DNA from: a virus
Taxonomy: Duplodnaviria; Heunggongvirae; Uroviricota; Caudoviricetes
Reading direction: 5' to 3' (one strand)
DNA: 16,577 bases
IMG/VR virus record: IMGVR_UViG_2671180846_000036
Coordinates: 1 to 16,577 of that record
Part shown: in pieces, positions 1,315 to 16,577 of the stretch
Numbering within the stretch: position 1 is the first letter of the stretch
Layout: each line of letters starts with the position of its first letter
Notes under the pieces: generated by a model
Told to the model about the DNA's origin: nothing
What the model saw: only the letters and a program-made list of their open reading frames with translations
Databases searched by the model: none
Made by a program: the position numbers and the translations under genes

Positions 1315-1369
1315 CGATACCTCCAGACGCCCAAGAGCGATACGAGCTTACATATTTCATGGTATTAAA

Positions 1370-1606
1370 TCACCTGGGTTGTTTGTTTTTCATTGAAGCG
1401 ACCCAGGCATCGATTGCTTTTCTGTTATACATACATTCGCTGGAAGGTTTTGGATTACCGTCAGGCGATACGTGAATATACTCTCTTCCTACCATCCAGC
1501 ATTCTTTCCGGGCCCGGAGAATTGTGCCTGGTTTGAGCCCGGTAATTGCGATAAGAACGCTTTCACAAACCCATTCATTGGGAGCCAGTTGAATCACATT
1601 GCCCAT
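1370..1606 (-). CDS. Excisionase-like small DNA-binding protein, 78 aa
   Basis: Small basic protein immediately upstream of int on the same strand. The pattern NEW...LKPGTILRARKECWMVGREYIHV resembles the lambda Xis / putative-excisionase winged-helix signature (..EW......RRW.REC.I....GREY..). GAGGTAA RBS 8 nt upstream of the ATG. Confidence 0.6.
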   Translation of the reverse strand: MGNVIQLAPNEWVCESVLIAITGLKPGTILRARKECWMVGREYIHVSPDGNPKPSSECMYNRKAIDAWVASMKNKQPR

Positions 1607-1614
1607 GCATTACC

Positions 1615-1761
1615 TCACACAACACTCAGCCCACGGCAGTGGCACCACACATCAAACATTCGTTTTACAATTTCACGGCAGTAGAAACCGTCAACATCTC
1701 GCGTCAGGTCATAGCGATTGCCGTAACGCTGGCGTACCCATAGCTCAAACGCTTTATTCAT
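1615..1761 (-). CDS. Small hypothetical protein, 48 aa (MNKAFELWVRQRYGNRYDLTRDVDGFYCREIVKRMFDVWCHCRGLSVV); absent from the supplied ORF track
   Basis: Translated by hand on the minus strand. ATG at 1759-1761 lies 3 nt after the TAA stop (1765-1767) of the upstream gene, with an AAGGAAG RBS 7 nt upstream; its TGA stop is 8 nt before the xis ATG. It fills an otherwise unexplained gap in a tightly packed operon. Confidence 0.35.
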   Translation of the reverse strand: MNKAFELWVRQRYGNRYDLTRDVDGFYCREIVKRMFDVWCHCRGLSVV

Positions 1762-1764
1762 TTT

Positions 1765-2007
1765 TTACTTCCTTTGCATGGCTCGTAATTTCTTCAGATG
1801 AGTTTCCTGCTCTGTTTCTGCCAGAATTTGTAGGTATTCCTGATGATCGAGCCGTTCAAACGTTTCATTAAAATCGTTTATTTTTACCGACTGTGTTCGC
1901 CCATCCATTCTTCTGTACAACACGGTGTTATTTATGCAGCGAATAATTCTTACCGGGTAACCGGCACTGTCGGTATACAGTTGTCCCTGATTAATCAAAG
2001 CGAACAT
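1765..2007 (-). CDS. Hypothetical protein, 80 aa (start trimmed to the internal ATG beginning MFALINQ)
   Basis: The long ORF 1765..2148 overlaps the upstream gene; the internal ATG at 2005-2007 is preceded by AGGAGAA. No recognisable motif. Confidence 0.45.
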   Translation of the reverse strand: MFALINQGQLYTDSAGYPVRIIRCINNTVLYRRMDGRTQSVKINDFNETFERLDHQEYLQILAETEQETHLKKLRAMQRK

Positions 2008-2038
2008 TTTTTCTCCTGCTCTCTGAATAGTGAGAACT

Positions 2039-2398
2039 TCAGAGTCGTATGTTTGTAGCGGGTTCAATGCTGATGATTTCTGCTGAGATAAGCATCCCGG
2101 CAAGCCAGAGCTCTCCGGACAGGTTTTCATCCTTGCATTCCAGTCCACCGATATTAATGGTGGCTATGATATCGCGCTCATCCTCGACTTCTTCATAAGG
2201 CAGCGTTGCGTACAGGCTTTCAATAGCGCAACTGATAACATCCAGTCCGGTCAGATTGCCGCCGACAGTAACTTCGAATGTTTCGCGGTATTCCCATAAC
2301 CCGAAAGTTAATCGAACGGTTTGTTTTGCCATGCGTCCGCATGACGTCAGATTCGGGTCATAGTTCATTATTTGCGGTTGGGCATTATGGGTGTTCAT
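2039..2398 (-). CDS. Hypothetical protein, about 119 aa (start trimmed to MNTHNAQ)
   Basis: ORF 2039..2470 overlaps the 3' end of the SPFH gene; the internal ATG at 2396-2398 is preceded by AAGGGAAAAG. No recognisable motif. Confidence 0.45.
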   Translation of the reverse strand: MNTHNAQPQIMNYDPNLTSCGRMAKQTVRLTFGLWEYRETFEVTVGGNLTGLDVISCAIESLYATLPYEEVEDERDIIATINIGGLECKDENLSGELWLAGMLISAEIISIEPATNIRL

Positions 2399-2438
2399 CT
2401 GCTTTTCCCTTAGCCCGGCGGCCTGCCGGGCATATAAG

Positions 2439-3266
2439 TTATTTAACCTGGATAAATGGTGTATTAGCACCGCTGGTCATGTATTGCGGCAGTGTGCCGT
2501 TCCATTTATTGATGGCTTCCAGCTCCATAACGCCGGGGTTCTGGCGCAGAGCTTCACCGCGTAAACGAATAGCATCAGCTTCGGCCTGGGCTTTTGTGCG
2601 AATCGCATCAGCCTGTCCGGCAGCTTCTGCGCGCAACATATTGGCTTCCGCTTCGCGCTGTTTTACTTCCTGCTCGCGCTGCAGTGTTTTCTGGTTCGCC
2701 GTGACTTTGGCATTAATGCTGTCGATAACGGTTGGCGGGTACTCCGGCTTACCCACATATGAGAGGCTCATTACCTGAATGCCGATAGGTGTCATCTCTG
2801 CCTGAATGTCTTTAAGAGCTTCATCCAGCAGCTCAGACTTGCCGCCGTCGATAAATTTGTCAGTGGTCATTTTGCTGGCCAGTCGGTTGAGTGCGTCGGC
2901 GATCTTCTGGCGCAGGTCAGTGTCGGTAATGTCATCCACGCCTTTGCGGTAGGTCTGAAACACCGTGGTAACTTTGGATGGATCAACTTTGTAGGCCACA
3001 CCGATGTGATAGCCGATGGTTGTACCGTCACTCATCTGGAAACTGAACGGTTCATCGTAGGTCTTCATTTGTTTGAAGGTGGGGAAGATATAAACTTCAG
3101 TATTCCAGCCAGTCCAGTAGCGACCAACACCGACCACCTCACCGACGCCTTTGTCGTCGCCCAGTTTATTTACCTTGATGCCAACATTACCTGGTTCAAC
3201 GCGATCGCAACCGACAAGGCCAATAGTCGGCAGAACAATGGCTAAAGCAAAAATAATTTTTTTCAT
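2439..3266 (-). CDS. SPFH/band-7 (prohibitin/stomatin-like) domain lipoprotein, 275 aa
   Basis: N-terminal lipoprotein signal peptide MKKIIFALAIVLPTIGLVGC with lipobox LVGC. Central beta-rich region followed by a long Ala/Glu/Arg/Gln-rich coiled-coil (REQEVKQREAEANMLRAEAAGQADAIRTKAQAEADAIRLRGEAL), the typical SPFH architecture. Start overlaps the stop of the upstream membrane-protein gene (ATGA). Confidence 0.75.
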   Translation of the reverse strand: MKKIIFALAIVLPTIGLVGCDRVEPGNVGIKVNKLGDDKGVGEVVGVGRYWTGWNTEVYIFPTFKQMKTYDEPFSFQMSDGTTIGYHIGVAYKVDPSKVTTVFQTYRKGVDDITDTDLRQKIADALNRLASKMTTDKFIDGGKSELLDEALKDIQAEMTPIGIQVMSLSYVGKPEYPPTVIDSINAKVTANQKTLQREQEVKQREAEANMLRAEAAGQADAIRTKAQAEADAIRLRGEALRQNPGVMELEAINKWNGTLPQYMTSGANTPFIQVK

Positions 3267-3451
3267 CTTTTATCCTTAGTGAAAGAAAGACCCTTGTAAA
3301 TGGCATAAATGCAGGGCGGGGTCAGAAACGCCAGTGCAAAGCCAGAAATAACTGCTATCGTATCCTTCATGGATATAAGGAACGGAACGAGTAATCCGTA
3401 AATGCATGCGATAATTGCCAGTGATATGACTATTCTGAAATAAATATTCAT
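3263..3451 (-). CDS. Small integral membrane protein, 62 aa, two predicted TM helices
   Basis: Two hydrophobic stretches (IVISLAIIACIYGLLVPFLI and IAVISGFALAFLTPPCIYAIY) with a basic C-terminal tail. Translationally coupled to the SPFH gene (ATGA overlaps at both ends). Confidence 0.6.
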   Translation of the reverse strand: MNIYFRIVISLAIIACIYGLLVPFLISMKDTIAVISGFALAFLTPPCIYAIYKGLSFTKDKR

Positions 3452-3726
3452 GCTCCTCCTGATATCTTTCTGATTGCCTTTTTCAACTTTTTACTGTTAT
3501 TCACGCTACAGTAAATTTCGGCAATCTCACGTGATAACATTATTTCTCCACTGTTTTTATCTATAGCAACGAGACTGGAATTGTCTCGTATGAGTTTCTT
3601 TATCATTGGCATTGCCATAAACTCTTCTGGCGTATAGATGCGTGTATGGCGGCGAACGTGTTTTATTACAGGTGTTTTATGTTTTGACTCAACCTGAAAT
3701 ACATTAATTTTATTCTGATTTGACAT
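3448..3726 (-). CDS. Hypothetical basic protein, 92 aa
   Basis: Complete ORF, ATG at 3724-3726 two nucleotides after the stop of the upstream gene; Lys/Arg-rich. No recognisable motif. Confidence 0.5.
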   Translation of the reverse strand: MSNQNKINVFQVESKHKTPVIKHVRRHTRIYTPEEFMAMPMIKKLIRDNSSLVAIDKNSGEIMLSREIAEIYCSVNNSKKLKKAIRKISGGA

Positions 3727-3728
3727 AT

Positions 3729-4310
3729 TTAATGTGCCACTGGTGTTTCTGGCATACCATGAGTATTCAGATCGTGAATCATTTCATCCAGAAGGAGTTC
3801 AAGCCCTTCGCGCCCCATAGCAGAAACAATGAAACCATTATCAGGATCTGCGATGAGCATATTTTGATAGAGAAACAGAACTCGCCCCATGCCTTCAGCT
3901 TCGCCATATTTTTCAATAAATCCCCATTCGACATGGTTTTGCAGGGCAATGCGAAGTGGTCCTGGGTATATACTCATGCAACCATGCTTCCCCTTATAAA
4001 TAACTGCGCGATCTGTAGTTCCGTCATCGTTAGGGATATCAATGGTGCCGTTCTTGCCTTCTTCTTCATTTATAAACGTCGTCACATACAGCCATCGCCA
4101 TTGAGCAATCTTCATATCGACTGAAAATCGTCCCAGTAATCCGGCATCATCGGCTTCAGCAATACATTGCATAATTCTTAAACCGTGAGAATTTGGATAA
4201 TCGTATTCACCATCATTAAGCCGCTGTACGGCCTCAACATAATCAATGGTTGTATTGCCCATTTTTATGCCATGTGGCGTAACTTCTGGTCGGAACTCTG
4301 AATGATTCAT
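3729..4310 (-). CDS. Hypothetical protein, 194 aa (start trimmed to MNHSEFRPEV)
   Basis: ATG at 4308-4310 overlaps the TGA stop of the upstream 67-aa gene (ATGA) and is preceded by AAGGAG 7 nt upstream. Acidic protein with no recognisable motif. Confidence 0.55.
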   Translation of the reverse strand: MNHSEFRPEVTPHGIKMGNTTIDYVEAVQRLNDGEYDYPNSHGLRIMQCIAEADDAGLLGRFSVDMKIAQWRWLYVTTFINEEEGKNGTIDIPNDDGTTDRAVIYKGKHGCMSIYPGPLRIALQNHVEWGFIEKYGEAEGMGRVLFLYQNMLIADPDNGFIVSAMGREGLELLLDEMIHDLNTHGMPETPVAH

Positions 4311-4510
4311 AATGTTTGCTCCTTTGCTGGTGGAATAATCGTGTAACCCGCTCTTTTTGCCATCCACAGAAATGTATCCATGCAGCCAACGAATTCATTA
4401 TCCAACAGATGTTTTGAGTAAATTACTTCACCATTTTCAATGGTTAGCAACACTCTTACTTTTTTATGTGTTATGTTTTGTTGTTTTTCTTCCATTGACT
4501 TATCTCCCAT
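4307..4510 (-). CDS. Hypothetical small protein, 67 aa, first gene of a five-gene leftward operon
   Basis: Complete ORF with a roughly 180-nt AT-rich upstream region (4511-4691) that probably carries the promoter; stop overlaps the next start. Confidence 0.45.
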   Translation of the reverse strand: MGDKSMEEKQQNITHKKVRVLLTIENGEVIYSKHLLDNEFVGCMDTFLWMAKRAGYTIIPPAKEQTL

Positions 4511-4691
4511 ATGCTTTGCGCAAATACAGGTTAGCTATATGAAGATAAGAATCTCCATGTTGTGCAATGAGGCAGGCAGTTTTATACGATGCCTTATGTT
4601 TCAGGAAAATCATAACATAATCTCCTGCGAATAAAGGTTGCAATAATCCCCGGCGATAAAACCGTAATAAACATTCAGGGAATATTTATTG

Positions 4692-5057
4692 TTATTGCGC
4701 TAATTCTTTTTCGGCAGCAGCTTTTGCATATTCACATGCAAAATTTAGAATTTCGCTGCCAAGTGTTTTTGTTTCGTGATTACTTGACATATGTAATACC
4801 TGTGTTGCATGCAATAAATGATAAACATTTACCGCAAATGAGTCCGGCTCCAGACAAATGCCTTCATAATCATCTTGTTGTGAGGTTGTTTCTGTCATTG
4901 CTCCTGAAGTGCATGCGAGCCTGTTTTTGACAATTCTCTTTCCTCTAATCACTATATCGGCAACATCTATTGCCTTTACAACCTCCGGGAGAAGTTCCGG
5001 GTTTGTATAATCAAAGTTATCAACATGGAGAACAGTTATGTTTTCGAACTTTTTCAT
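4692..5057 (-). CDS. Hypothetical protein, 121 aa
   Basis: Complete ORF in an AT-rich segment; no recognisable motif. Confidence 0.5.
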   Translation of the reverse strand: MKKFENITVLHVDNFDYTNPELLPEVVKAIDVADIVIRGKRIVKNRLACTSGAMTETTSQQDDYEGICLEPDSFAVNVYHLLHATQVLHMSSNHETKTLGSEILNFACEYAKAAAEKELAQ

Positions 5058-5185
5058 GGCTTCCTCAGCTGACTTATATGTTCTGCTATATAGCGAGTCT
5101 CAGAAGTGTTTTCATATTGAGACTGTTTCCGCAATGATCGATAAAAATGTTCGCATGTACCTTGAGGGGCGAAGCGGTGATTATG

Positions 5186-5734
5186 TCACCATTGGTATTG
5201 GTTCTTCCTTAGAAGAGCTTCGCGAGATAAGGAGCAAACTTGTTGAGATGCGTCATGGTGTTGCTGCTCCTCACTTTTTGGTTGCTCCGGAGGAGTAACC
5301 TCGCCAGTTAACAGCCACATCGGATCGCAGCCAAGAATATTTGCCAGTGGGATAAGCATACTGATAGTTGGTTCATACTCTCCGCTCTCCCACTGGATGA
5401 TAATTTCTTCATCGAGATCGAGCAGCCTGGCGAGTTCGGCGGTTGTTAAGCCGCAGGCTTCGCGTTGGGGGCGAAGGTTAACCAGCCAGCTTTCAGGGAA
5501 GGATTGTTTTTGTTGTGCAGGAGAAGCAGCAGATAGAGCATATTCATGGATAAATTCCATTACCTCAATGCCCAGTTCCTTTGAGCGAGCACAATCCAGA
5601 AGATGGAATGTGCGTACAGCACTTAGCAAATTTGCAATATTTAATGCAAAGGAATCAAGTTCTAAGCCCTTAAGCGTAACACAGCCGCAGTTGATAAAAT
5701 TAGTTGTTTCTGGAGTTGCGTTTAGTGTCTTCAT
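5186..5734 (-). CDS. XRE/Cro-C1-type HTH domain protein, 182 aa
   Basis: Segment LTTAELARLLDLDEEIIIQWESGEYEPTISMLIPLANILGCDPMWLL matches the XRE-family HTH pattern (helix, turn, QWE.G...P....L..LA..L). The HTH sits in the C-terminal half, which is atypical. Confidence 0.55.
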   Translation of the reverse strand: MKTLNATPETTNFINCGCVTLKGLELDSFALNIANLLSAVRTFHLLDCARSKELGIEVMEFIHEYALSAASPAQQKQSFPESWLVNLRPQREACGLTTAELARLLDLDEEIIIQWESGEYEPTISMLIPLANILGCDPMWLLTGEVTPPEQPKSEEQQHHDASQQVCSLSREALLRKNQYQW

Positions 5735-5843
5735 ATATCCACCAACAATTTTAAATTGAATTAAATCAAGTTATAATTGATGGTGCGATATTATGCTTTG
5801 AGAAATAGGCTGTCAAGAAAAAATTGATATTGTGTGTTTTAGG

Positions 5844-5868
5844 CAGAAAAAAACGGGCAAAGCCCGTT
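5844..5868 (-). terminator. Rho-independent terminator downstream of the repressor gene
   Basis: Plus strand aaaaaaa-AACGGGC-aaa-GCCCGTT; on the minus-strand transcript this is a 7-bp GC-rich stem, 3-nt loop, then a U7 tract, about 12 nt after the cI-like stop. Confidence 0.55.
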
Positions 5869-5879
5869 AAAATCAAAGA

Positions 5880-6575
5880 CTAACCAAATCTGTTTATATT
5901 GAATGGTACTGATGAGATCACTTTAGACTGGATATAAAGCAGAGCTAACCCCTCTTTTTCGATGCTCCATGGTTGATAATTGGGGTTATCAGATAACACC
6001 ATGATTTTGCTTCCAATTTTCTGAAGTCTTTTTACGTAGCATTCTCCATCAAAACAAAATGCATAAATGCCATCGCCATCAAAATAAGTTACTGTCTTAT
6101 CAAGAAAAAGAAGGTCGCCAGGTGAGATTGTGGGAGCCATACTGTCTCCTCTGGCGTTACCTATTTCTATATTTTTGAATGCCCGATTTCCAACAAGGCG
6201 TCGGGCATATTCAGGGTCAAGTTCTATTGAGCGCACTACATCTATCAAGTCACCACGGACATGAGTTCCATCACCGCAACTAAACTCAACATCAAGGACA
6301 TTAAACACGACGCTATCTGTTCTTGTCTGGTGTTTCTCTTGCGAGGAAAAGGTTGGTGAGGAGTCTTCACCTAAGAACCAGGATTGTGGATAACCGCTAA
6401 TCTCTGATAAATGCGCGAGCTTATCACTCCGTGGAAATGTTTTTCCTGTTGTCCAATACTGCACTGATTGCGCACTCACACCTAACTTGCGGGCCAGTTG
6501 AGCCTGAGTCCATCCTTTTGCTTTCAGCATTGCGGCTATTCGATTTTCCGTGTTTTTGACGTTCTTCATAACCAA
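5880..6575 (-). CDS. cI: CI-like phage repressor (N-terminal HTH, C-terminal S24 LexA-like autopeptidase), 231 aa
   Basis: N-terminal HTH (WTQAQLARKLGVSAQSVQYWTTGKTFP). The C-terminal domain carries the S24 catalytic Ser in GDSMAPT and the Lys in YVKRL. Divergent from a Cro-like gene across a 127-bp repeat-containing intergenic region. Confidence 0.9.
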   Translation of the reverse strand: MVMKNVKNTENRIAAMLKAKGWTQAQLARKLGVSAQSVQYWTTGKTFPRSDKLAHLSEISGYPQSWFLGEDSSPTFSSQEKHQTRTDSVVFNVLDVEFSCGDGTHVRGDLIDVVRSIELDPEYARRLVGNRAFKNIEIGNARGDSMAPTISPGDLLFLDKTVTYFDGDGIYAFCFDGECYVKRLQKIGSKIMVLSDNPNYQPWSIEKEGLALLYIQSKVISSVPFNINRFG

Positions 6576-6702
6576 ATCCTGTGGGTTTCTTTACAAGGAT
6601 AAATCTTTACTTGATTTTAGTGTATTCGATCCTTTTGTAACTTGCATGTTAATTTAAACTTGATGTATTCTTGATTCATAAAGTTAATATTGGTGCTTTG
6701 TT
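6576..6702. promoter_or_regulatory. Immunity-switch intergenic region (putative divergent promoters and operators)
   Basis: AT-rich 127-bp region between divergent cI-like and cro-like genes. Contains the imperfect inverted pair TACAAGGAT / ATCCTTTTGTA and several copies of ACTTGAT / CTTGATT. Exact operator half-sites and -10/-35 boxes were not resolved. Confidence 0.5.
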
Positions 6703-7002
6703 ATGAAAGGAAATGATTACGACAAACTTCGTGCATTAATTGCGCAAAATGCCATAGCGCGAAATCTTGGTGTGACGCCGCAAGCGGTGAATCAGTGGTT
6801 TTCAAAAAACACAATTCCTGCTCGTTTCGTTTTACGCGTATGTGAAGTAGTTGCATGGAAGGTCACGCCACATGGCTTAAGGCCAGATCTTTATCCTCAC
6901 CCTGAAGATGGAATTCCTGATTCGTTACGCAAAATTTCAAATCCAAGCTTAGCGCGCACGGAAGATGGGCAGAGTGATTTATCAGAAATGTCCACGCGAT
7001 GA
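6703..7002 (+). CDS. Cro-like HTH regulator, 99 aa
   Basis: Small protein with HTH (AIARNLGVTPQAVNQWFSKNTIP) transcribed divergently from the cI-like gene, in the canonical cro position. Short leader and weak SD. Confidence 0.7.
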   Translation: MKGNDYDKLRALIAQNAIARNLGVTPQAVNQWFSKNTIPARFVLRVCEVVAWKVTPHGLRPDLYPHPEDGIPDSLRKISNPSLARTEDGQSDLSEMSTR

Positions 7003-7078
7003 ACGGTTACTGAACGAAAAAAGAAAAGCCGGGCCGCATTCCGTCAGCCCGACTTATTCTGATTAGTAAGGGGATTTC

Positions 7079-7924
7079 ATGATGATCAATAAACAAAAAT
7101 TAGTCAACCCTGAAAACCTGCCAGTTATTGCTGGTGTAGAAATTTCAACTGATATGGTTGGGCGCTTTAATCTGAATGCATTGCATCGAGCCAGCGGTCT
7201 TGGCCCCAATAAAGCTCCGACGCAGTGGTTGCGTACTCAGTCAGCTAAACAACTTATTGAAGAGCTGGAAAAAGAAACTATGCAGAATTGCATAGTTTCA
7301 CTGGAAGGGCGGAATGGCGGTACTTTTGCGCACGAACTGCTTGCTGTTGAATATGCAGGATGGATTTCTCCTGCGTTCCGGTTGCAGGTGAACCAGACTT
7401 TTATTGACTATCGTACTGGCAAACTTACAGCGGGCAATAATCAGTTACCCAATTTTGACGATCCGATCGCTGCTGCTGAAGCGTGGATTGAGGCCAGAAA
7501 AGCCGAACGCCTTGCTCTCGGGTATGTAGAGCGTCAGGCTCGCTACATCAACAAACTTGAAAGCCATCTCGCCGATGGCATCACTCCTGTGCAGTTCTGC
7601 AAACAACTCAACGGTGTAAACACTCGTCAGATTAATGCGTTCCTTGAAGAGCGTAACTGGCTGTATGACGACCGTCCGGAGGCGATGTATCCGCGCTGGC
7701 GTGTAAAAGCGTATGCACGTGACCAATACCTGACTGAGCGTTCTGGGCAGGTTGAGCAGGAAAACGGGGAAATGCGCGAGATTTTCAAACCACTCCTGAA
7801 GAAAAAAGGTGCCGCCTGGTTATATCGCCATTATCTGAACGGCGAACTACCGATGAAGAAAACATGGGATGGGCTATTTACCCATAACACTGAGCTCGCG
7901 AATCTTTTACAGGAGAACAAATGA
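7079..7924 (+). CDS. KilA-N domain protein with C-terminal antirepressor-like region, 281 aa
   Basis: N-terminal segment FNLNALHRASG...GGTFAHELLAVEYAGWISPAFRLQV matches the KilA-N signature as I recall it (GTWxHP.LA...A.WlSP.F). AAGGGGA RBS upstream; stop overlaps the next gene start. Confidence 0.6.
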   Translation: MMINKQKLVNPENLPVIAGVEISTDMVGRFNLNALHRASGLGPNKAPTQWLRTQSAKQLIEELEKETMQNCIVSLEGRNGGTFAHELLAVEYAGWISPAFRLQVNQTFIDYRTGKLTAGNNQLPNFDDPIAAAEAWIEARKAERLALGYVERQARYINKLESHLADGITPVQFCKQLNGVNTRQINAFLEERNWLYDDRPEAMYPRWRVKAYARDQYLTERSGQVEQENGEMREIFKPLLKKKGAAWLYRHYLNGELPMKKTWDGLFTHNTELANLLQENK

Positions 7925-8133
7925 TGCAAACCAAGACGTGTGTAACTGGTGATGTCGATCTGAAACCTTGCCCGTTCTGCGGAAATCCGGAAGTACAACT
8001 CATTGAGGTGAAATATTTTCTGGATGGCGATGATGGTTATTACGTCGCATGTACTTGCTGTAACGCAAACCAGATTCCTGATTCGAAAGAACGTGCCGTT
8101 CATGACTGGAACCAGCGCGAAAACGTGGATTAA
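7921..8133 (+). CDS. Small zinc-ribbon protein, Lar-like (putative restriction alleviation), 70 aa
   Basis: Two Cys pairs (LKPCPFCG ... CTCC). The LKPCPFCG motif and size fit the Lar-family restriction-alleviation proteins of Rac-type prophages as I recall them. Translationally coupled (ATGATG) to the upstream gene. Confidence 0.5.
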   Translation: MMQTKTCVTGDVDLKPCPFCGNPEVQLIEVKYFLDGDDGYYVACTCCNANQIPDSKERAVHDWNQRENVD

Positions 8134-8447
8134 CGGCGAGTAGGTACAAAATGATCCGCAACCAAAATATTGATTCTGCAATTTCGGGACGTTACACTGT
8201 TCCGGCACCTTATAAAGCGGGTGCCGGGATTGGAACCCCGGAATTGCTCGAGGCGATATACGACGCGCCAGCGTCTTTTTTATCGTCCATGCTCGCGCAC
8301 GCCAGAATTATGGTGGGCTGGGCAGGGGAGCCGAAAGGCTCGCCGGTTTCCTTGAGCGCCGGTAGTTCCAACCCTGTCCAGTCCGCCACCAGTGAGATTG
8401 GAACCTCCGGTGGTGGAAGTTTTTCACTGCTCAAGGAGGCTGCCATC

Positions 8448-8810
8448 ATGGCTACAGTCCCAACTTCCCCATACCTGAAAATCGAAGTCGTCAACGGCAA
8501 AGCTGTTATTTTCTCCCTGCATGTTGCCTGCCACTTTAAGCGCATGCACCAGAACATCGTCGACAAAATCGAGTATCTGAACTGCTCACGCGAATTTTTT
8601 ACCCGCAATTTCATACCGGGTACTTATCACATCTATGGTGACTCCCTGCGTGGTTATTACATCACCCTTGATGGGCTGATGATGCTTCAGCTTGGGTTAA
8701 GTCTGCGCACAATGCGGTACTACGAGAGCTGCATTGAAGTATTCCATGAGGCTGAAACCAGTCTGAATCACACTGCTTTCCGCCGTAATCAATGGGAGGT
8801 GCGCCCATGA
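8448..8810 (+). CDS. Rha-family phage regulatory protein, about 120 aa (start at internal ATG; in-frame ORF extends back to 8151)
   Basis: VVNGKAVIFSLHVACHFKRMHQNIVDKIEYLNCSREFF...YITLDGLMMLQLGL resembles the Rha N-terminal domain pattern (V.NG.avt.Sl.vAe.FgK.H.nVlrdi..l.cs.eF...mTrdGf.lL.mg). The ATG at 8448 has a strong AAGGAGG RBS 8 nt upstream; the upstream in-frame extension is GC-rich, low-complexity and lacks a good RBS. Confidence 0.6.
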   Translation: MATVPTSPYLKIEVVNGKAVIFSLHVACHFKRMHQNIVDKIEYLNCSREFFTRNFIPGTYHIYGDSLRGYYITLDGLMMLQLGLSLRTMRYYESCIEVFHEAETSLNHTAFRRNQWEVRP

Positions 8811-9031
8811 TTCGTCGCGTTGTGAATTCTCTGTATCACCGATACAACCGTTGCCCCCGTGTGGGGCAGTGGTTTGCCACCAGCAACGGTCATGTTCTGC
8901 GGGTTTGCCTGGTCAGTACCGAAAGCCAGAAAGTCGTGTGTGAATTACTGGGGCGTAACTACACCATTAGCTACCCACTGGCGGTGTTTCAGTCCGGAAA
9001 AATGTTTAAACGCCTGGGAGGTGCCGTGTGA
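8807..9031 (+). CDS. Hypothetical small protein, 74 aa (start at MIRRV)
   Basis: ATG at 8807 overlaps the Rha stop (ATGA) and is preceded by GGGAGGTG. No recognisable motif. Confidence 0.45.
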   Translation: MIRRVVNSLYHRYNRCPRVGQWFATSNGHVLRVCLVSTESQKVVCELLGRNYTISYPLAVFQSGKMFKRLGGAV

Positions 9032-9984
9032 GTAGCAAAATTCTCGGTAACGTCTGGGATGCATGTGCCGCGTATGGAGTCAAAGGTGCAAAGCTGATGA
9101 TCATGGCGCGCCTGGCTGATTATTCGAATGATGACGGGGTGTGTTACCCCGGTGTTGAAACAATATGCCGACAGCTTGGGTTGGGAGAAAGCACAGTAAG
9201 AACGGCAATTTCAGAGCTGGAGGCTGATGGCTGGCTGACGCGTCATTCACGCCGCAAAGGTAATCGTAATACGTCCAATCTTTATCATCTGAATGCTGAT
9301 CGGCTTGAACAGCTTGCCAGAACGGAGCGGGATAAGGTCGCTGAACTGAAAAAACAGCGCAGACTTTCAGCATTACGTGACCCGTCAGAATCTGAACCGT
9401 CAGAATCTGAACCTTCAAAATCTGAACCGTCAGAATCTGAACCTTCAAAATCTGACCAGTCAGAATCTGAATGTTCAGGTGTGTTTGACCCTTCAGATTC
9501 TGGCAAAAAAACGGTTTTGACCCTTCAGAATCTGGACCCAGATCCACAAGGTTTAAAACATGATCCACAAGTAAATTCAAAACATGATCCGCAAGATATT
9601 GGCGCATCCGCTGACGCGTCTGCACCAGCGCGTTCTGCCCGACAGGAATATTCACCGGAATTTGAACAGGCCTGGCAGGAATATCCCAAACGTGCTGGTG
9701 GCAATTCCAAGTCAGCAGCCTTCAAAGCCTGGAAAGCCCGTCTCAGGGAGGGAATAAAACCGGAGACCATGCTTGATGGTGTGAGACGTTATGCCGCCTG
9801 GGTACGTGCTACAGGAAATACCGGCACACAGTTCGTGAAGCAGGCTGCGACGTTCTTTGGACCCGATCGTCATTTCGAGGAAGCCTGGCAACAGCCAGCC
9901 GCTCCCGGAGGTGGGCGAACTACCGGCCTCCCGATCTCGGGATTCAGTGAGCAGGACTACGGTTCAACGAACTTCAACTGGTGA
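9028..9984 (+). CDS. Replication initiator / replisome organiser (O-like; N-terminal wHTH, repeat-encoded Ser/Glu/Pro linker, C-terminal DnaT-like region), 318 aa
   Basis: N-terminal HTH-like region (CYPGVETICRQLGLGESTVRTAISELEADGWL); an internal low-complexity linker PSESEPSESEPSKSEPSESEPSK encoded by DNA tandem repeats; position immediately upstream of the DnaC-like and DnaB-like genes. The arrangement parallels lambda O, where ori iterons lie inside the gene. Confidence 0.7.
   Translation: MSSKILGNVWDACAAYGVKGAKLMIMARLADYSNDDGVCYPGVETICRQLGLGESTVRTAISELEADGWLTRHSRRKGNRNTSNLYHLNADRLEQLARTERDKVAELKKQRRLSALRDPSESEPSESEPSKSEPSESEPSKSDQSESECSGVFDPSDSGKKTVLTLQNLDPDPQGLKHDPQVNSKHDPQDIGASADASAPARSARQEYSPEFEQAWQEYPKRAGGNSKSAAFKAWKARLREGIKPETMLDGVRRYAAWVRATGNTGTQFVKQAATFFGPDRHFEEAWQQPAAPGGGRTTGLPISGFSEQDYGSTNFNW
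9382..9471. repeat. Six tandem 15-bp direct repeats (consensus CCGTCAGAATCTGAA), putative origin iterons
   Basis: Read directly: CCGTCAGAATCTGAA x2, CCTTCAAAATCTGAA, CCGTCAGAATCTGAA, CCTTCAAAATCTGAC, CAGTCAGAATCTGAA. The core CAGAATCTG is near-palindromic. Two further copies (GACCCTTCAGATTCTGG and GACCCTTCAGAATCTGG) lie at 9487-9535, followed by CATGATCCACAAG repeats and A/T-rich spacers at 9541-9600. Confidence 0.7.
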
Positions 9985-10003
9985 TTTTTCGAGGTGATGA
10001 ACA

Positions 10004-10894
10004 ATGTTTGAACAGTTAAAAAAATACTACGCACAACACGACAAAGCGCAATTGCTCAACCGCAGGGCGGAACTGGAGGAGGAGATGCAGTTTGCCCGTG
10101 CCGGGAAGCGTCCGTGGCGCTGTGAACACTGGCTGACAAGCGAGGAAACTGCTGAGTGTGAGAAACACGGGAAATACACACGTCTGGTGTTGAAAGGGCC
10201 AGATGTTCGTGGGGAAGCCATCAAACGGGTGTCTGGTTGCCCGACCTGCATTGCGAATGAACTGGATCAGGTACAGGAGGCGTTACGCATCCTGAAAGTT
10301 CATGAATTACTCGACAGGGCTGGTATTGCCCGCCGCTTCCAGAACTGCGAGTTTGAGAATTATCAGGCGGTGAATGCTGACGCACAGAGAAATCTTGAGG
10401 CTTGTCGGCGCTATGCCGGTTCATGGGAGAAGTGTCTTGCTGCGGGTACCAGCATGATCATGATTGGCAATTGCGGTACCGGGAAAAATCACCTGGCTGT
10501 ATCAATGGCAAAAAATATTATTCGCCACCACCTGGCGACTGTCGAAATTACGGATGTTATGCGACTGACCCGCGCTGTGAAAAATACCTGGCGTCACAAT
10601 TCTGAACGCACTGAAGATGAAGTTATTGACCATTTTGTATCGCTGGACCTGCTCATCATCGATGAGGTTGGTGTGCAGTTCGGTACGCCAACAGAGATAA
10701 CCATCCTGCAGGAAATCATCAATGCGCGTTACGAAAGCGTGTTACCGACAATTTTGATCAGCAATCTGACGTTTGAACAGCTTAAGGAATCCATTGGTGA
10801 ACGGATTGTGGATCGCGTTACTGATGGTGGGCGTAACTGTCTGGTGTTTGGTTGGGAAAGCTACCGTGCACATATCAGAGGTGTGGCAGCATGA
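10004..10894 (+). CDS. DnaC-like helicase loader (IstB-like AAA+ ATPase), 296 aa
   Basis: Walker A GNCGTGKNHLA and Walker B LLIIDEVG. N-terminal Cys cluster (RCEHW ... GCPTC) suggests a zinc-binding module. GAGGTGA RBS upstream. Confidence 0.85.
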   Translation: MFEQLKKYYAQHDKAQLLNRRAELEEEMQFARAGKRPWRCEHWLTSEETAECEKHGKYTRLVLKGPDVRGEAIKRVSGCPTCIANELDQVQEALRILKVHELLDRAGIARRFQNCEFENYQAVNADAQRNLEACRRYAGSWEKCLAAGTSMIMIGNCGTGKNHLAVSMAKNIIRHHLATVEITDVMRLTRAVKNTWRHNSERTEDEVIDHFVSLDLLIIDEVGVQFGTPTEITILQEIINARYESVLPTILISNLTFEQLKESIGERIVDRVTDGGRNCLVFGWESYRAHIRGVAA

Positions 10895-12282
10895 CAACTC
10901 CAGTCTGGCGTAACGATGACCTGGAAGGCGCTGTCATTGGCGCGTTCTTTCTGCGCGGGGCAGATCCTGAAGTGATGGATATTCTGGCCACACTACCTGC
11001 GGACGTTTTTTCTGTACGACCGTATCGGGATATCTACACAGGCATCTGCAGACAGGCCCGTGTTTCAGGTGTGATTGACCCTGTGCTGCTGTGTAATGAG
11101 ATGCCGGAACTTGCCCCGGTGATTACTGATACCGGGCGTAAAACCTGGGTGAAGTCTTCACTGGAGCACTATGTTGCAGCGTTGCGTCGCAATGCCGCAC
11201 TGCGTGATGCAGAAAAGACGCTGAATGAGGCGTTGCAGAAATTACGTGATGCGCATACCTGTGAAGCAGCTGAAGATGCCCTGAAGGATGCGCAGAACAT
11301 GATGGCCTCATTGTCGACGGAAAAGGGCGTTATTCAGCCGGTACATATTGATGATGTGCTTCCGGAAGTGGTTGAGCGTGTTGAATGCCGGAATCAGGGG
11401 CTGGAGAAATCCAGGACGTTGATGACCGGTATTGATGAACTGGACGCAAAAACGGGCGGCATGGAGCCTGGCGACCTGGTATTTATTGCTGCACGTCCTT
11501 CGATGGGCAAAACCGAACTGGCGCTGGATATCATCGACAAGGTGACTGAGCAGGGGCATGGTGTTCTTCTGTTCACAATGGAAATGGCGAACATCCAGAT
11601 TGGTGAGCGCATGGTATCTGCGGCTGGAGGAATGCCGGTATCACGTCTGAAATCTGTCACTCACTTTGAAGACGAAGACTGGGCACGTTTCTCACAAGGG
11701 GTGGGGCGGATGACCGGGCGCAATATCTGGATGGTGGACCAGGCGAACCTGACCATTGACGAGATATGCGCAACAACGAAACACCACCTGATTAAACATC
11801 CGGAAACGGCGCTGGTGGTGGTTGATTATCTCGGACTGATAAAAACCCGAACCACGGGGCGTCATGACCTTGCCGTGGGTGAAATCTCAAAGGGGCTTAA
11901 AGGTCTGGCAAAATCCGGTGGTTTTCCGTTGATTGCGCTGAGTCAGCTCTCCCGCGGTGTGGAGTCCAGACCCAATAAACGTCCGATGAACTCAGACCTG
12001 AAAAATTCCGGAGAAATAGAGGCGGATGCAGACATCATTCTGATGCTTTACAGGGATGAAGTGTACAACCCGGATACGCAGGCCAGGGGCATCGCAGAAA
12101 TCAATATCACGAAACAGCGTAACGGTTCTCTGGGGACGGTTTACCGGCGTTTTTATAACGGACATTTTCTGCCTGTGGATCAGGAAAGCGCACAGATTCT
12201 TTCCACCCCAATGCAGCAGCCCCAGCCGCGCAGATACAGCAATAAGCGAACCGACAGCAGTAAGATGGAGCGTTTCTTTTGA
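10891..12282 (+). CDS. DnaB-like replicative DNA helicase, about 463 aa (start at MTTPVW)
   Basis: RecA-like C-terminal domain with Walker A ARPSMGKTELAL, Walker B-like VVVDYLGLI and the SQLSR motif typical of DnaB-family helicases. ATG at 10891 overlaps the DnaC-like stop (ATGA). Confidence 0.85.
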   Translation: MTTPVWRNDDLEGAVIGAFFLRGADPEVMDILATLPADVFSVRPYRDIYTGICRQARVSGVIDPVLLCNEMPELAPVITDTGRKTWVKSSLEHYVAALRRNAALRDAEKTLNEALQKLRDAHTCEAAEDALKDAQNMMASLSTEKGVIQPVHIDDVLPEVVERVECRNQGLEKSRTLMTGIDELDAKTGGMEPGDLVFIAARPSMGKTELALDIIDKVTEQGHGVLLFTMEMANIQIGERMVSAAGGMPVSRLKSVTHFEDEDWARFSQGVGRMTGRNIWMVDQANLTIDEICATTKHHLIKHPETALVVVDYLGLIKTRTTGRHDLAVGEISKGLKGLAKSGGFPLIALSQLSRGVESRPNKRPMNSDLKNSGEIEADADIILMLYRDEVYNPDTQARGIAEINITKQRNGSLGTVYRRFYNGHFLPVDQESAQILSTPMQQPQPRRYSNKRTDSSKMERFF

Positions 12283-12293
12283 ACAACCAGACC

Positions 12294-12536
12294 ATGACTT
12301 TTACGCCTGAACAATTACGTAAACAGGCACAGGAAATGTTACGACAGGCGGAACAACTGGAAAAGACAGGCGTAACAAAAGATGCCATTCGTAAGGATAT
12401 GGTGCCAGCGCTCAGGGAACTGATGCAGGCGAAACACCGCGCACAAAAAGCAGTGGATGAGCTGGTGGATTGTGTGGCAGAGCTGGAAACCAAAGTTGGA
12501 AAGTTCGAAAAACTGGTGCAGGAGGTACTGCGCTGA
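12294..12536 (+). CDS. Small coiled-coil hypothetical protein, about 80 aa
   Basis: Charged helical sequence (EQLRKQAQEMLRQAEQLEK...). The track ORF begins at a TTG at 12279; the first ATG is at 12294. Stop overlaps the Q start (TGATG). Confidence 0.45.
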   Translation: MTFTPEQLRKQAQEMLRQAEQLEKTGVTKDAIRKDMVPALRELMQAKHRAQKAVDELVDCVAELETKVGKFEKLVQEVLR

Positions 12537-12904
12537 TGCGTGATATGTACGAAGTTTTAGATCGTTGGGGGGCCTGGGCTGCAGCAGATAACAGTGGTGT
12601 GGACTGGCAGCCGATAGCAGCAGGCTTCAAGGGGCTTTTACCACACGGTAAAAAGTCACGTCTCCAGTGTGATGATGACGAAGGTATCATGATAGACGGT
12701 TGTGTGGCTCGGTTGCGAAAGTATAAACCCGAAGAGTATGAGTTGATCATTGCTCACTTTGTTATTGGTATCTCATTACGCGCTATTGCTAAAAAACGGA
12801 AATGTTCAGATGGAACAATACGGAAAGAGATGCAAACAGCAATGGGGTTTATTGATGGCTGCTTGTCATTTTTCATTTACTACAATGACTTAAGTTCTAT
12901 GTAA
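12536..12904 (+). CDS. Q: Late-gene antitermination protein Q (phage 82/21/DLP12 QuuD-type), 122 aa
   Basis: [60 protein letters not shown]... closely parallels the N-terminus of DLP12/phage-21-type Q as I recall it ([34 protein letters not shown]...[20 protein letters not shown]). Position after the replication genes fits. Confidence 0.85.
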   Translation: [122 protein letters not shown]

Positions 12905-12910
12905 AATCGT

Positions 12911-12945
12911 TCTACTTTCCCAACTTTTATGTGTATATAATACCA
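12911..12945 (+). promoter_or_regulatory. Putative promoter region downstream of Q (candidate PR'-like late promoter or cargo-gene promoter)
   Basis: AT-rich stretch with a consensus TATAAT hexamer at 12936-12941, about 27 nt upstream of the GTG start of the methyltransferase; no convincing -35. Proximity to the Q stop (12904) matches where lambdoid PR'/qut sites lie. Confidence 0.3.
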
Positions 12946-12967
12946 GGATAAAGTAACGGAGAATCTT

Positions 12968-14008
12968 GTGAACATTCAGGCAGTAGACATTTTTTGTGGT
13001 GCGGGGGGCTTAACTTTTGGGCTAAAAAAAGCCGGGATTGAGGTTTCTCATGGTATTGATATTGATGAATCCTGCCGTTTTGCTATTGAGAGCAATAATC
13101 CTTTAACGCAGTTCATTAATCAGTCAGTTACAGAACTGCAATCCTGCGATGTGTCTGCTATGTTCAAGGAAGGAAATATTAGATTGCTTGCTGGATGTGC
13201 TCCTTGCCAACCGTTTTCCAAGTATCGTAATCCAAATAGCCGTAAAGACGATACAAAGTGGCGTTTGTTATATGAGTTTCAAAGGCTTGTAAGTGATGTC
13301 ATGCCAGAGCTTGTGACGATGGAGAATGTTCCTCAACTTAGAAACCATAAGGTTTTTGAAGGGTTTGTTAGTGCATTAAAGACTCTTGGATATCATTTGT
13401 GGTACGACGTTGTAAGATGTTCTGAGTATGGCTTACCTCAAAATAGACGTAGATTAATTCTAATTGGTTCCCAATTGGGGCCGATCAGCCTTGATCAAAA
13501 AAAAGTTAGCCGTAAAGTTACTGTTAAGGATGCTATTGGTAGGTTGCCAAAAGTAGGGGCAGGTGAGAAGCTGGAAAGCGATCCCTTGCATCGTTCGCCT
13601 AAATTGATGGATATCAATCTTAAACGAATCATGCATTCTTTACCTGGTGGTACGTGGGATGACTGGCCTGAAGAAATTAGAGCAGACTGTCATAAAAAGA
13701 ATTCAGGTGCTACCTATAAAAGCGTTTATGGACGGATGGTTTGGGACGATACTAGCCCTACGATAACTACCCAGTGTTATGGATATGGAAATGGACGATT
13801 TGGCCATCCTGAGCAAAATCGCGCCATAACTTTGCGTGAAGCTGCGATTTTGCAATCCTTTCCAATGGATTATAAATTCCTTGACAAGGAGACGCCTTTT
13901 TCATTCCAAAAATTGGGGACAATGATTGGAAATGCTGTTCCCCCTATAATTGGTCAGATAATAGGGGAAACATTTATCAGACATGTTGAGGGGATAAATA
14001 CCCGTTAG
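12968..14008 (+). CDS. DNA (cytosine-5)-methyltransferase (Dcm-type), 346 aa, GTG start
   Basis: Canonical C5-MTase motifs in order: I DIFCGAGG (FxGxGG), IV GCAPCQPFS (catalytic PCQ), VI TMENVPQL (ENV), VIII QNRRRL, X GNAVPP. ACGGAG RBS upstream. AT-rich relative to the replication module. Confidence 0.9.
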   Translation: MNIQAVDIFCGAGGLTFGLKKAGIEVSHGIDIDESCRFAIESNNPLTQFINQSVTELQSCDVSAMFKEGNIRLLAGCAPCQPFSKYRNPNSRKDDTKWRLLYEFQRLVSDVMPELVTMENVPQLRNHKVFEGFVSALKTLGYHLWYDVVRCSEYGLPQNRRRLILIGSQLGPISLDQKKVSRKVTVKDAIGRLPKVGAGEKLESDPLHRSPKLMDINLKRIMHSLPGGTWDDWPEEIRADCHKKNSGATYKSVYGRMVWDDTSPTITTQCYGYGNGRFGHPEQNRAITLREAAILQSFPMDYKFLDKETPFSFQKLGTMIGNAVPPIIGQIIGETFIRHVEGINTR

Positions 14009-14666
14009 AGGTAATATAATTTTCTGTTGAGTTGATTAATAAACGCAAATATAGATCAATTCTTTCTGACCTCGATTTGACTTCTTCTAAAGGGTCTATT
14101 TGACCTTTTTTAGAAAAGCTGGTACTTCCATGTGCCAGCTCATTTCTGATATCTTTAAGTAAATCTAAGTCAACACCATTTCTACACTCTGGTGAGTTTG
14201 CAACAGTTATTCCGTAAGCTTGTGTTATTTTGTGCAATACAGACTTGCAAACATTACCATTGAATTCTTTACGTATGTTTAATGAGGCTGAAATGATCCT
14301 TTTAGATATATCGGAACCAATTTTTTGATAAAGAGATTTTCCCGATTCATTATCTGAAATGATACGGTGCAAGATATTTACTTGGAATTTCTCCCTGAGT
14401 GATGCGTAATTTACTTCATTATCTTGCAAATGGTCATAAATTGACTCAATGCATCCTCTGGCAGTGTTTTCAACCTGATTGTACAGCATCATGTGCACGG
14501 ATGATTTTAAAATGTTAACCCTAAGGGTATTTGATTCTATTTCATCTTTATGCGTTTGCTGATCTAACTGCTGAGTCTGAGCCTCTAAAGATGACGCAAG
14601 AGAAAGCAATTCCATAATATCTCTTGCTCTTTCTTCGTATTCATCTCTTAAATCAATCAAACTCAT
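13977..14666 (-). CDS. HEPN-like protein (Rx4H motif; resembles the MAE_28990/MAE_18760 HEPN family), 229 aa
   Basis: Predicted all-helical protein with the motif DIRNELAHG (R-x4-H) in the C-terminal third, the hallmark of HEPN RNase domains. Second gene of a two-gene operon (start 2 nt after the DUF262 gene stop). Its 3' end overlaps the convergent C5-MTase gene by 32 bp. Confidence 0.55.
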   Translation of the reverse strand: MSLIDLRDEYEERARDIMELLSLASSLEAQTQQLDQQTHKDEIESNTLRVNILKSSVHMMLYNQVENTARGCIESIYDHLQDNEVNYASLREKFQVNILHRIISDNESGKSLYQKIGSDISKRIISASLNIRKEFNGNVCKSVLHKITQAYGITVANSPECRNGVDLDLLKDIRNELAHGSTSFSKKGQIDPLEEVKSRSERIDLYLRLLINSTENYITSNGYLSPQHV

Positions 14667-14668
14667 AG

Positions 14669-15826: not shown

Positions 15827-15936
15827 ATCACTGTTCCTTTAATTGGAGTTGGAAATAGATTGTAAGAAAACTATAACGCGTACGCAAAAAATATTATATC
15901 GTGTTAAGAGTGGTTACTACGCCACACAGCTTAAAC

Positions 15937-15957
15937 CCGCCGCCAGGCGGTTTTTTG
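15937..15957 (+). terminator. Putative rho-independent terminator (plus-strand orientation)
   Basis: CCGCC-gcca-GGCGG hairpin (5-bp GC stem, 4-nt loop) followed by TTTTTTGTGT. No plus-strand CDS lies immediately upstream, since the region between 14008 and 15826 is occupied by minus-strand genes. Confidence 0.4.
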
Positions 15958-16079
15958 TGTCCGAAAAACGGCGCAGTACGTTAAACGTGCTGGTGGTTGC
16001 GAATACCGGTCTTTCAGCTTGCTGGCTTTTCAGACAAGAGTTATTGGTGTGTCACGTTAACCAGAAAAGGGAAAAAGAC

Positions 16080-16277
16080 ATGCTAAAACAGCAGGATATG
16101 ACCGAAACCGCCAGAGTGGTATTTAATGAATTAAGTGTCACCGAACCGGCGACCGTCGGGGAAATTGCGCAGAATACCTACCTTTCACGCGAACGCTGCC
16201 AGTTAATACTGACCCAGCTTGTTATGGCGGGTCTGGCAGATTATCAGTTCGGTTGTTACAGACGCCTTCCGCAGTGA
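16080..16277 (+). CDS. Small putative winged-helix DNA-binding protein, about 65 aa (start at MLKQQ; alternative start MTETA at 16098)
   Basis: Internal start of ORF 15843..16277, preceded by AAAAGGGAAAAAG. Segment ATVGEIAQNTYLSRERCQLILTQLVMAGLA looks like a wHTH recognition helix and is reminiscent of FaeA/PapI-like small regulators; the resemblance is weak. Confidence 0.4.
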   Translation: MLKQQDMTETARVVFNELSVTEPATVGEIAQNTYLSRERCQLILTQLVMAGLADYQFGCYRRLPQ

Positions 16278-16427
16278 AGGCTTTTTAATTTGTGGTAATG
16301 GGCGGCTGGTGGGTGTTAGCGGCACCTGCCAGCCATCTGCTCATGCGTTGGGGTCACAAGCAAACCTCAGGCCCATCTGCTTTGCGCAAAAGCGGAATGA
16401 GCCTATCAGAGAAGTGCTTATTGATCT

Positions 16428-16577
16428 ATGGCTAATACTGTAAAAATATCCAGTTGTGAGTTAATCAACGCTGATTGCCTGGAATTTATCCAGACCTTAC
16501 CGGAAAACTCTGTCGATCTGATAGTCACAGACCCGCCATACTTTAAAGTGAAGCCCGAGGGCTGGGATAACCAGTGG
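16428..16577 (+). CDS. DNA methyltransferase, N6-adenine/N4-cytosine class (DPPY motif), 5' partial (first 50 codons; runs off the window)
   Basis: Hand translation from the ATG at 16428: MANTVKISSCELINADCLEFIQTLPENSVDLIVTDPPYFKVKPEGWDNQW. SVDLIVTDPPY is the catalytic motif IV (DPPY) of amino-MTases, placed near the N-terminus as in beta-class enzymes. Absent from the ORF track because no stop lies within the window. Confidence 0.75.
   Translation, partial: MANTVKISSCELINADCLEFIQTLPENSVDLIVTDPPYFKVKPEGWDNQW

Follow-up and report, generated by a model that had tools for sequence, protein, structure and literature searches.

A probable IsrK-C4 antisense-RNA switch beneath an 'ash family protein' call in the early-right region of an Escherichia coli lambdoid prophage

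The 16,577-nt window analyzed here, which is the whole stretch of DNA under study (IMG/VR record IMGVR_UViG_2671180846_000036, positions 1 to 16,577), is a lambdoid prophage of E. coli. Three co-directional open reading frames (ORFs) are located directly after its cro/YdaS-like gene at 7079-7924, 7921-8133 and 8151-8810, where the first-pass annotation had put them, and the third carries the database name 'ash family protein'. The segment is most probably an early-right regulatory region with an RNA switch of the P1 immI and Gifsy-1 isrK type that gates a gene for a 120-amino-acid (120-aa) Rha-domain protein. The third "gene" is largely the known combination of the small RNA (sRNA) IsrK with the antisense RNA C4, which the first-pass annotation overlooked, and the annotated 219-aa protein is mostly a translation of this RNA module. 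Matches to RNA families, covariation both within the C4 structure and between its loop and target, the lack of selection at the amino-acid level, and gene overlaps carry this assignment. The elements of the module and the gene that it precedes are as follows.

8151..8447, plus strand: 'Ash' reading frame over the promoter, isrK and C4, which holds an orf45-like AUG at 8310 (Pfam PF10554)
8170..8198, plus strand: putative isrK promoter, with a -35 element TTGATT (8170-8175), a 17-nt spacer, a -10 element TACACT (8193-8198) and a start near 8205 (sequence reading)
8205..8281, plus strand: isrK sRNA, the a1/b1 element (Rfam RF01394, 63 bits against a gathering threshold of 50)
8262-8281, plus strand: intrinsic terminator of isrK (terminator scan)
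8306..8393, plus strand: C4-type antisense RNA (Rfam RF01695, 86 bits against a gathering threshold of 45; full-length match 1-87)
8347-8358, plus strand: C4 specificity loop b2, the hairpin-2 loop, UUUCCUUGAGCG, which pairs with b'
8383-8392, plus strand: C4 3' arm, a2, which pairs with a' at 8407-8416
8407..8439, plus strand: C4 target sites a' (8407-8416) and b' (8428-8439); b' spans the Shine-Dalgarno sequence AAGGAGG at 8433-8439
8448..8810, plus strand: Rha-domain-only protein, 120 aa, a C4-gated candidate antirepressor or regulator (phrog_995, 2e-57; phrog_518 'Rha-like', 9e-14)

Both Rfam RNAs lie in the part of the 219-aa ORF made up of codons 1-99. The C4 loop at 8347-8358 is complementary to b' at 12 of 12 positions, and b' with its Shine-Dalgarno sequence precedes the in-frame ATG at 8448 by 8 nt. 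The target occurs again inside isrK as the 9-nt b1 element at 8245-8253, which is also complementary to the C4 loop. The putative isrK promoter has the same geometry as the isrK promoter of Gifsy-1, and its hexamers are kept in 44 of 50 anchored homologues.

C4 cores were gathered from IMG/VR with a structure-based pattern that was blind to ORFs, which gave 105 unique 530-nt segments. Compensatory double changes were present in 12 of the 24 pairs of the C4 secondary structure among 23 diverse homologues. Whole-RNA calculations with RNAduplex gave long, uninterpretable duplexes, and the run of complementarity between loop and target was analyzed instead. Cognate runs in 23 distinct loop classes were 8-12 nt long with a mean of 10.8 nt, compared to a mean of 6.3 nt for non-cognate combinations. 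The cognate run ended 5-9 nt before an ATG in every class (23/23), and each class also had a 7-9-nt site in the upstream IsrK element. Covariation of the loop with its target is the specificity logic of P1 and P7, and cognate pairing that covaries and ends 5-9 nt before an ATG therefore identifies 8448 as the regulated start. The Stx phage F039 has both RNAs annotated, and its coding sequence (CDS) starts 55 nt after C4 at the equivalent of 8448, the same spacing as in the window. At least 23 specificity classes can be told apart by the covariation of loop and target, and these could be used to predict cross-regulation of antirepressors between prophages.

Selection on the 219-aa ORF was measured in 21 full-length homologues as the ratio of nonsynonymous to synonymous polymorphism (pN/pS). 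The Rha part had a ratio of 0.42, whereas the Ash part had 0.83 and, over the promoter plus isrK, 0.99. Synonymous divergence was also lower in the Ash part, and nucleotide diversity over isrK, the spacer and C4 was without an excess at third codon positions. Protein-level purifying selection is shown only by the last 120 codons, which encode a divergent Rha domain.

Resemblance to Rha within the 219-aa ORF is confined to residues 110-208. The 120-aa protein can be aligned along its whole length with an authentic Rha protein of another phage, which is encoded at the C4-gated position there and scores 113.9 bits on PF09669; identity is 35% over residues 1-107 (E = 2e-18). The window protein itself scores 25.0 bits on PF09669 (cut-off 29.9) and 38.6 bits on TIGR02681 (cut-off 45.95). 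A sequence search of the PDB and a PADLOC run returned no match for it. The C4-gated position elsewhere holds Rha, Bro-N or ORF6N antirepressor types or small unknown proteins. The first-pass annotation had called all of 8151-8810 a Rha-like gene. That likeness holds, below cut-off, for residues 110-208, and the rest is the Ash region over isrK and C4. The corrected gene model has as its regulated product a 120-aa Rha-domain protein under an antisense-RNA switch, and not a 219-aa 'ash family protein'. Two further genes follow the Rha-like gene.

8807..9031, plus strand: 74-aa ORF (phrog_1153, 2.8e-42; called as a CDS by PGAP in the prophage of E. coli strain EC12)
9028..9984, plus strand: replication initiator, O-like/DnaD-like (phrog_270, 7.6e-76; Pfam HTH_36)

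The proposed mechanism starts with the early-right promoter, which would drive, after cro, the KilA-N/ANT antirepressor-type gene at 7079-7924 and then the Lar-family gene through an overlapping ATGA. The conserved promoter at 8170-8198 would make IsrK (8205-8281), which carries a1/b1 and would end at its own terminator. C4 (8306-8393) would also be carried on read-through transcripts and on transcripts from the early-right promoter. Pairing of the C4 loop with b' (8428-8439) and of the C4 3' arm with a' (8407-8416) would occlude the Shine-Dalgarno sequence of the gene at 8448. IsrK could titrate or re-fold the C4 region because it has the same target sequence in b1, and translation would then be turned on, as shown for Gifsy-1. 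The Rha-like gene, the 74-aa ORF and the initiator form a chain of overlapping genes. The start of the 74-aa ORF overlaps the Rha-like stop (ATGA, 8807-8810), and the GTG of the initiator overlaps the stop of the 74-aa ORF (GTGA, 9028-9031). Through these serial start/stop overlaps the C4-gated ribosome-binding site (RBS) may influence initiator synthesis, and the switch probably also modulates the expression of downstream replication genes. The direction of regulation, an antirepressor activity of the Rha-like product and an effect on the replication genes are what we infer from the arrangement.

The mechanism has been demonstrated experimentally at the isrK-orf45-anrP locus of Gifsy-1 in Salmonella (Hershko-Shalev et al. 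2016; PMC4825925). Short IsrK acts there in trans on the read-through transcript and opens the orf45 RBS, orf45 is translated, and its translation is coupled to that of the antirepressor AnrP (PMC4825925). IsrK and the C4-like RNA STnc1160 are abundant in lysogens (PMC4825925; PMC7067206). The window and Gifsy-1 have in common the promoter, IsrK with its terminator, the C4-like RNA, and an antirepressor-type gene whose Shine-Dalgarno sequence is paired by the C4 loop. They also share an AUG at +106/+107 from the IsrK 5' end, at 8310 in the window, which opens the same frame (MVG..EPKGSPV). The orf45 TGA overlaps the anrP ATG in Gifsy-1, whereas the window frame runs unbroken into the regulated gene. 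On the upstream side, the frame of Gifsy-1 closes two codons before orf45, and that of the window stays open back to 8151. C4 gates a Rha-like gene in the window and an ORF6N gene in Gifsy-1. The window module is located in the early-right operon before the replication genes, and the Gifsy-1 module is located after antQ.

Two systems known for longer are P1/P7 immI (Citron & Schuster 1990, as cited in PMC7313666) and the CI RNA of satellite phage P4. The immI region of P1 and P7 has the order c4 antisense RNA, icd, ant, and the mature C4 RNA of P1 is processed by RNase P. The window resembles immI in its RF01695 family RNA with a1/b1 upstream and a'/b' downstream over the RBS of the first gene, in its translationally coupled downstream genes, and in the use of the loop sequence as the specificity determinant. 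P1-like sequences differ in having stops in the 'Ash' frame. In P1 a small gene at the icd position is gated first and ant comes after it; the window has no gated icd-ant pair and has the 120-aa Rha-domain gene, the phrog_1153 ORF and the replication initiator instead. On a 93-kb P1-like IMG/VR contig (L011), the first C4-gated ORF encodes 85 aa and matches the Pfam Tad2-like family (Thoeris anti-defence 2-like) at 27.7 bits against a cut-off of 25.

The CI RNA of P4 (seqA / CI / seqC) is a processed leader RNA that pairs with flanking complements and blocks the downstream replication genes (PMC4825925). The window module is likewise located upstream of replication genes. P4 acts by premature transcription termination, whereas the link to replication in the window is read from start/stop overlaps only. 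APSE phages have isrK and C4 beside a Bro gene (PMC7313666).

The region 7079-8810 is best taken as an immunity/antirepressor region and not as an anti-restriction cluster. The two genes ahead of the RNA module, and the genes farther right that bear on restriction, are listed here.

7079..7924, plus strand: KilA-N plus ANT (KilA-C) protein, 281 aa, of the antirepressor / P1 KilA type (Pfam, phrog_63, PGAP)
7921..8133, plus strand: Lar-family zinc-ribbon protein, 70 aa (PF14354, TIGR03655, alignment to RalR)
12968..14008, plus strand: C5 cytosine DNA methyltransferase, just downstream of the Q antiterminator gene (Pfam DNA_methylase, 183.4 bits; PADLOC MTase_II, 292 bits)
13977-15826, minus strand: DUF262/GmrSD_N protein and then a HEPN_MAE_28990 protein (PADLOC NsnA, 155 bits, and PD-T4-2_A, 93 bits, for the DUF262 protein)
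16428..16577, plus strand: DPPY (amino) DNA methyltransferase, N-terminal 50 residues, cut by the window end (six-frame scan: MANTVKISS...LIVTDPPYFKV)

Pfam searches of the 281-aa protein detected an N-terminal KilA-N domain at 76.4 bits (cut-off 23.8) and a C-terminal ANT domain at a marginal 25.9 bits (cut-off 25.3), which agrees with the first-pass call of a KilA-N antirepressor-like gene. The protein also matches phrog_63 'anti-repressor Ant' (1e-33), and PGAP names it 'KilA-N domain-containing protein' in the EC12 prophage. It is of the KilA-N/ANT antirepressor type as judged by these profiles, and inactivation of a repressor is predicted from family likeness. A PDB sequence search gave no match. 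Related prophages have ORF6N in place of the KilA-N domain and retain the coupled Lar gene, together with the first 19 codons and the intergenic region before them.

The first-pass annotation had put this cluster in a counter-restriction theme. It is possible, though doubtful, that the cluster and the two methyltransferases are chiefly a counter-restriction set in which the 70-aa protein alleviates type I restriction like the Lar protein of Rac. The family assignment that this requires was borne out, with 43.2 bits on Pfam PF14354 (Lar_restr_allev; cut-off 28.6) and 49.5 bits on TIGR03655 (cut-off 39.6), and the PHROG label is phrog_599 'Lar-like restriction alleviation protein'. The 70-aa protein is 36% identical (E = 2e-9) to Lar/RalR of the K-12 Rac prophage (King & Murray 1995; Guo et al. 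2014), with which it shares the family hidden Markov model (HMM), a CPFC...CxxC zinc ribbon and a C-terminal WNxR. Its C17/C20 (CPFC), C44/C47 and WNQR align with CPFC...CNGC...WNKR of RalR. The RalR equivalog model NF007260 gave 25.3 bits against a cut-off of 113. The profile scores establish the protein as a member of the Lar family and indicate that it is not a RalR orthologue. RalR, the founding member, has also been characterized as a DNase toxin (PMC4041452). Restriction alleviation by the 70-aa protein is therefore putative.

The setting of the Lar-like gene also differs from that in Rac, where the gene is beside recET. Its ATG overlaps the stop of the KilA-N/ANT gene in the sequence ATGA at 7921-7924, the overlap noted in the first-pass annotation, and it belongs to the early-right operon. 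The neighbors are antirepressor and immunity elements and not anti-restriction genes, and the methyltransferases that would complete a counter-restriction set are 5-8 kb away, past Q, in another transcription unit. The counter-restriction theme is not the organizing feature of 7079-8810, which is dominated by the antirepressor/immunity region with its IsrK-C4 switch.

A second alternative, somewhat less probable, is that the Lar-like protein is not a restriction alleviator at all. It could act as a type I toxin, a toxic DNase of the RalR kind, or serve the translationally coupled KilA-N/ANT protein as a small zinc-ribbon accessory factor. Membership in the family of RalR is consistent with the first, and the tight ATGA coupling to an antirepressor-type gene persists even where ORF6N swaps in as the N-terminal domain. 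The low identity to RalR argues against a RalR-type toxin, as does the Rfam search, which found no RalA-like antitoxin RNA in the window. The Lar-like protein had no match in a PDB sequence search or with PADLOC.

Profile searches and the six-frame scan recovered the C5 methyltransferase and the partial DPPY methyltransferase that the first-pass annotation had reported, as well as candidate defense genes of the prophage itself, the GmrSD_N/DUF262 and HEPN pair at 13977-15826. Protection from host restriction by the methyltransferases is plausible from their families. The DUF262/GmrSD_N and HEPN pair is located between the C5 and DPPY methyltransferases, just after Q, and from its gene content looks like a two-gene defense system carried as a moron. 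All four genes belong to the late/moron region beyond Q and have no evident link to 7079-8810.

Several points weigh against the IsrK-C4 switch as interpreted for 8151-8810. The putative isrK promoter matches the consensus at 8 of 12 positions, which is under the threshold of a generic scan. On the curated Rha models the Rha-like protein stays under the cut-offs, and it has no C-terminal partner domain; for these reasons its antirepressor activity is a guess. The remaining points concern the Ash frame. An open-frame clade was set by nucleotide identity alone and consisted of 83 unique sequences with a minimum pairwise identity of 56%; the Ash frame was without any stop position in all 83. In the other two frames of the clade, distinct stop positions numbered 12 and 18 in the part upstream of C4 and 6 and 7 in C4 itself. 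In the 22 sequences outside the clade, P1-like contigs included, the Ash frame had stops at 17 and 6 positions. Indels of 39 and 45 nt in the spacer are both multiples of three. Because the Ash frame is stop-free throughout the clade while the other frames gather stops, ribosomes probably do read through the RNA module. The orf45-like frame, unlike that of Gifsy-1, has no stop before the regulated gene, and a long fusion product, either of 219 aa or of 166 aa from the AUG at 8310, is possible.

The simplest reading of the open frame, we infer, is that ribosomes must be able to cross the module, which extends the orf45 requirement of Gifsy-1. Such transit could keep the replication genes free of polar effects, or it could overcome the terminator of IsrK. 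A purely spurious Ash ORF was also considered and dropped, given the 83 of 83 stop-free clade sequences and the translation of the equivalent orf45 in Gifsy-1.

A broader proposal is offered tentatively. 'Ash' in Pfam and PGAP would be the translated IsrK-C4 module and not a domain, and the frame in lambdoid prophages would be kept open for the transit of ribosomes and not for a peptide. Translation that comes in from the early-right operon would prevail over both the terminator of IsrK and the fold of C4, and Rho polarity would be avoided. Untranslated IsrK/C4 transcripts in the lysogen would hold off the Rha-like gene and, via the overlaps, the initiator. The module would in this way be a translation-sensitive RNA gate on phage replication.

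The database view, that 8151-8810 encodes a genuine two-domain 219-aa protein (Ash plus Rha) and that the RNA matches are secondary or coincidental, is improbable: it accommodates the Pfam Phage_ASH match (PF10554, 60.6 bits against a cut-off of 26, residues 15-107), the hundreds of 'ash family protein' entries, the stop-free clade and the in-frame indels, but the Ash part has a pN/pS of about 1 with constrained synonymous sites and no codon-position periodicity, its amino-acid changes track compensatory changes in the stems, the ORF holds a promoter, an intrinsic terminator and an internal Shine-Dalgarno sequence and ATG that covary with the C4 loop, P1-like relatives retain the RNAs yet have stops in the Ash frame, and the annotated N-termini vary arbitrarily to give products of 219 to 357 aa. 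An AlphaFold2 model of the 219-aa ORF, built with a 28-sequence alignment, has no predicted structure for residues 1-109, but overall it was uninformative for both halves (mean predicted local distance difference test score 32, predicted template modeling score 0.20).

The type of switch and the public gene names are known; what has been overlooked is the antisense-RNA immunity switch under the 'ash family protein' call. Thousands of annotations with this name in E. coli and its phages appear to hide two unannotated regulatory RNAs, and by implication the Ash family is for the most part a protein reading of an RNA module. A frame that is strictly open yet not conserved poses a small puzzle about translation through a regulatory RNA. 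Some annotated ash family proteins of 342-357 aa (proteins P0001 and P0005; loci L018 and L086) cover two tandem, divergent C4 modules in one uninterrupted frame.

The surroundings of the segment are those of a common prophage type. Positions 6600-9100 are 99.9% identical to the EC12 prophage, where PGAP/NCBI already gives the same gene names, and part of this interval was matched in 1255 of 5426 complete E. coli genomes. The cluster that follows cro is genuine but ordinary among E. coli prophages. The window runs from the integrase through early-left genes, an S24 cI-like repressor, the cro/YdaS-like gene, the three ORFs and the 74-aa ORF to the replication initiator, a DnaC-like loader, DnaB helicase and the Q antiterminator. 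Three features flank the start of the early-right operon.

5880-6575, minus strand: S24 cI-like repressor, which diverges from the cro/YdaS-like gene
6703..7002, plus strand: cro-like helix-turn-helix (HTH) gene of the YdaS/Cro type, first in the early-right operon (Pfam YdaS_toxin, 47.3 bits; weak P22_Cro match; phrog_35 transcriptional repressor)
7026..7055, unstranded: G+C-rich hairpin between cro and the KilA-N gene (terminator scan; T-run after it on the minus strand)

The cluster occupies the position where lambda has cII, as the first-pass annotation observed, and Pfam, PHROG and NCBIfam profile searches found no match to the CII family among the proteins between cro and the replication initiator. 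A 182-aa HTH protein encoded at 5186-5734 on the minus strand, left of the cI-like repressor, carries the PHROG label 'CII-like regulator' (1e-77) and has a weak DicA match. The cII analogue of the prophage, if present, may be this protein rather than one encoded after cro.

The hairpin at 7026-7055 is terminator-like on the minus strand and may be a tR1-like element on the plus strand. Minus-strand RNA from 7075 to 7010 folds at -21.3 kcal/mol (z = -2.7), and the hairpin at 7055-7026 followed by TTCTTTTTTC forms a canonical terminator on the minus strand only. A weak promoter-like site, TTGACT-N17-CATCAT, is located at 7107-7079 on the minus strand, just upstream of this hairpin. The hairpin region, including the first 19 codons, is kept in the variant in which ORF6N takes the place of KilA-N. 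As read from these elements, the site and hairpin at 7107-7026 could produce an RNA of ~50 nt antisense to the RBS of the KilA-N/ANT gene, like sar in P22. Rfam was searched permissively with 6560-7200 for any known antisense RNA encoded between cro and the KilA-N gene, and all matches were at chance level.

The window and the EC12 prophage have different late-regulation segments at ~12300-14000. EC12 has DUF968, RusA and an 820-nt antitermination gene, and in their place the window has a 144-aa Q protein (Phage_antitermQ family) and, after it, the C5 methyltransferase. This difference is a mosaic exchange downstream of the replication genes. Within the initiator gene, a tandem-repeat search detected 6.3 copies of a 15-nt iteron-like unit at 9378-9471 with 84-92% matches. 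The repeats encode SESEPSK repeats and resemble the ori iterons embedded in the lambda O gene.

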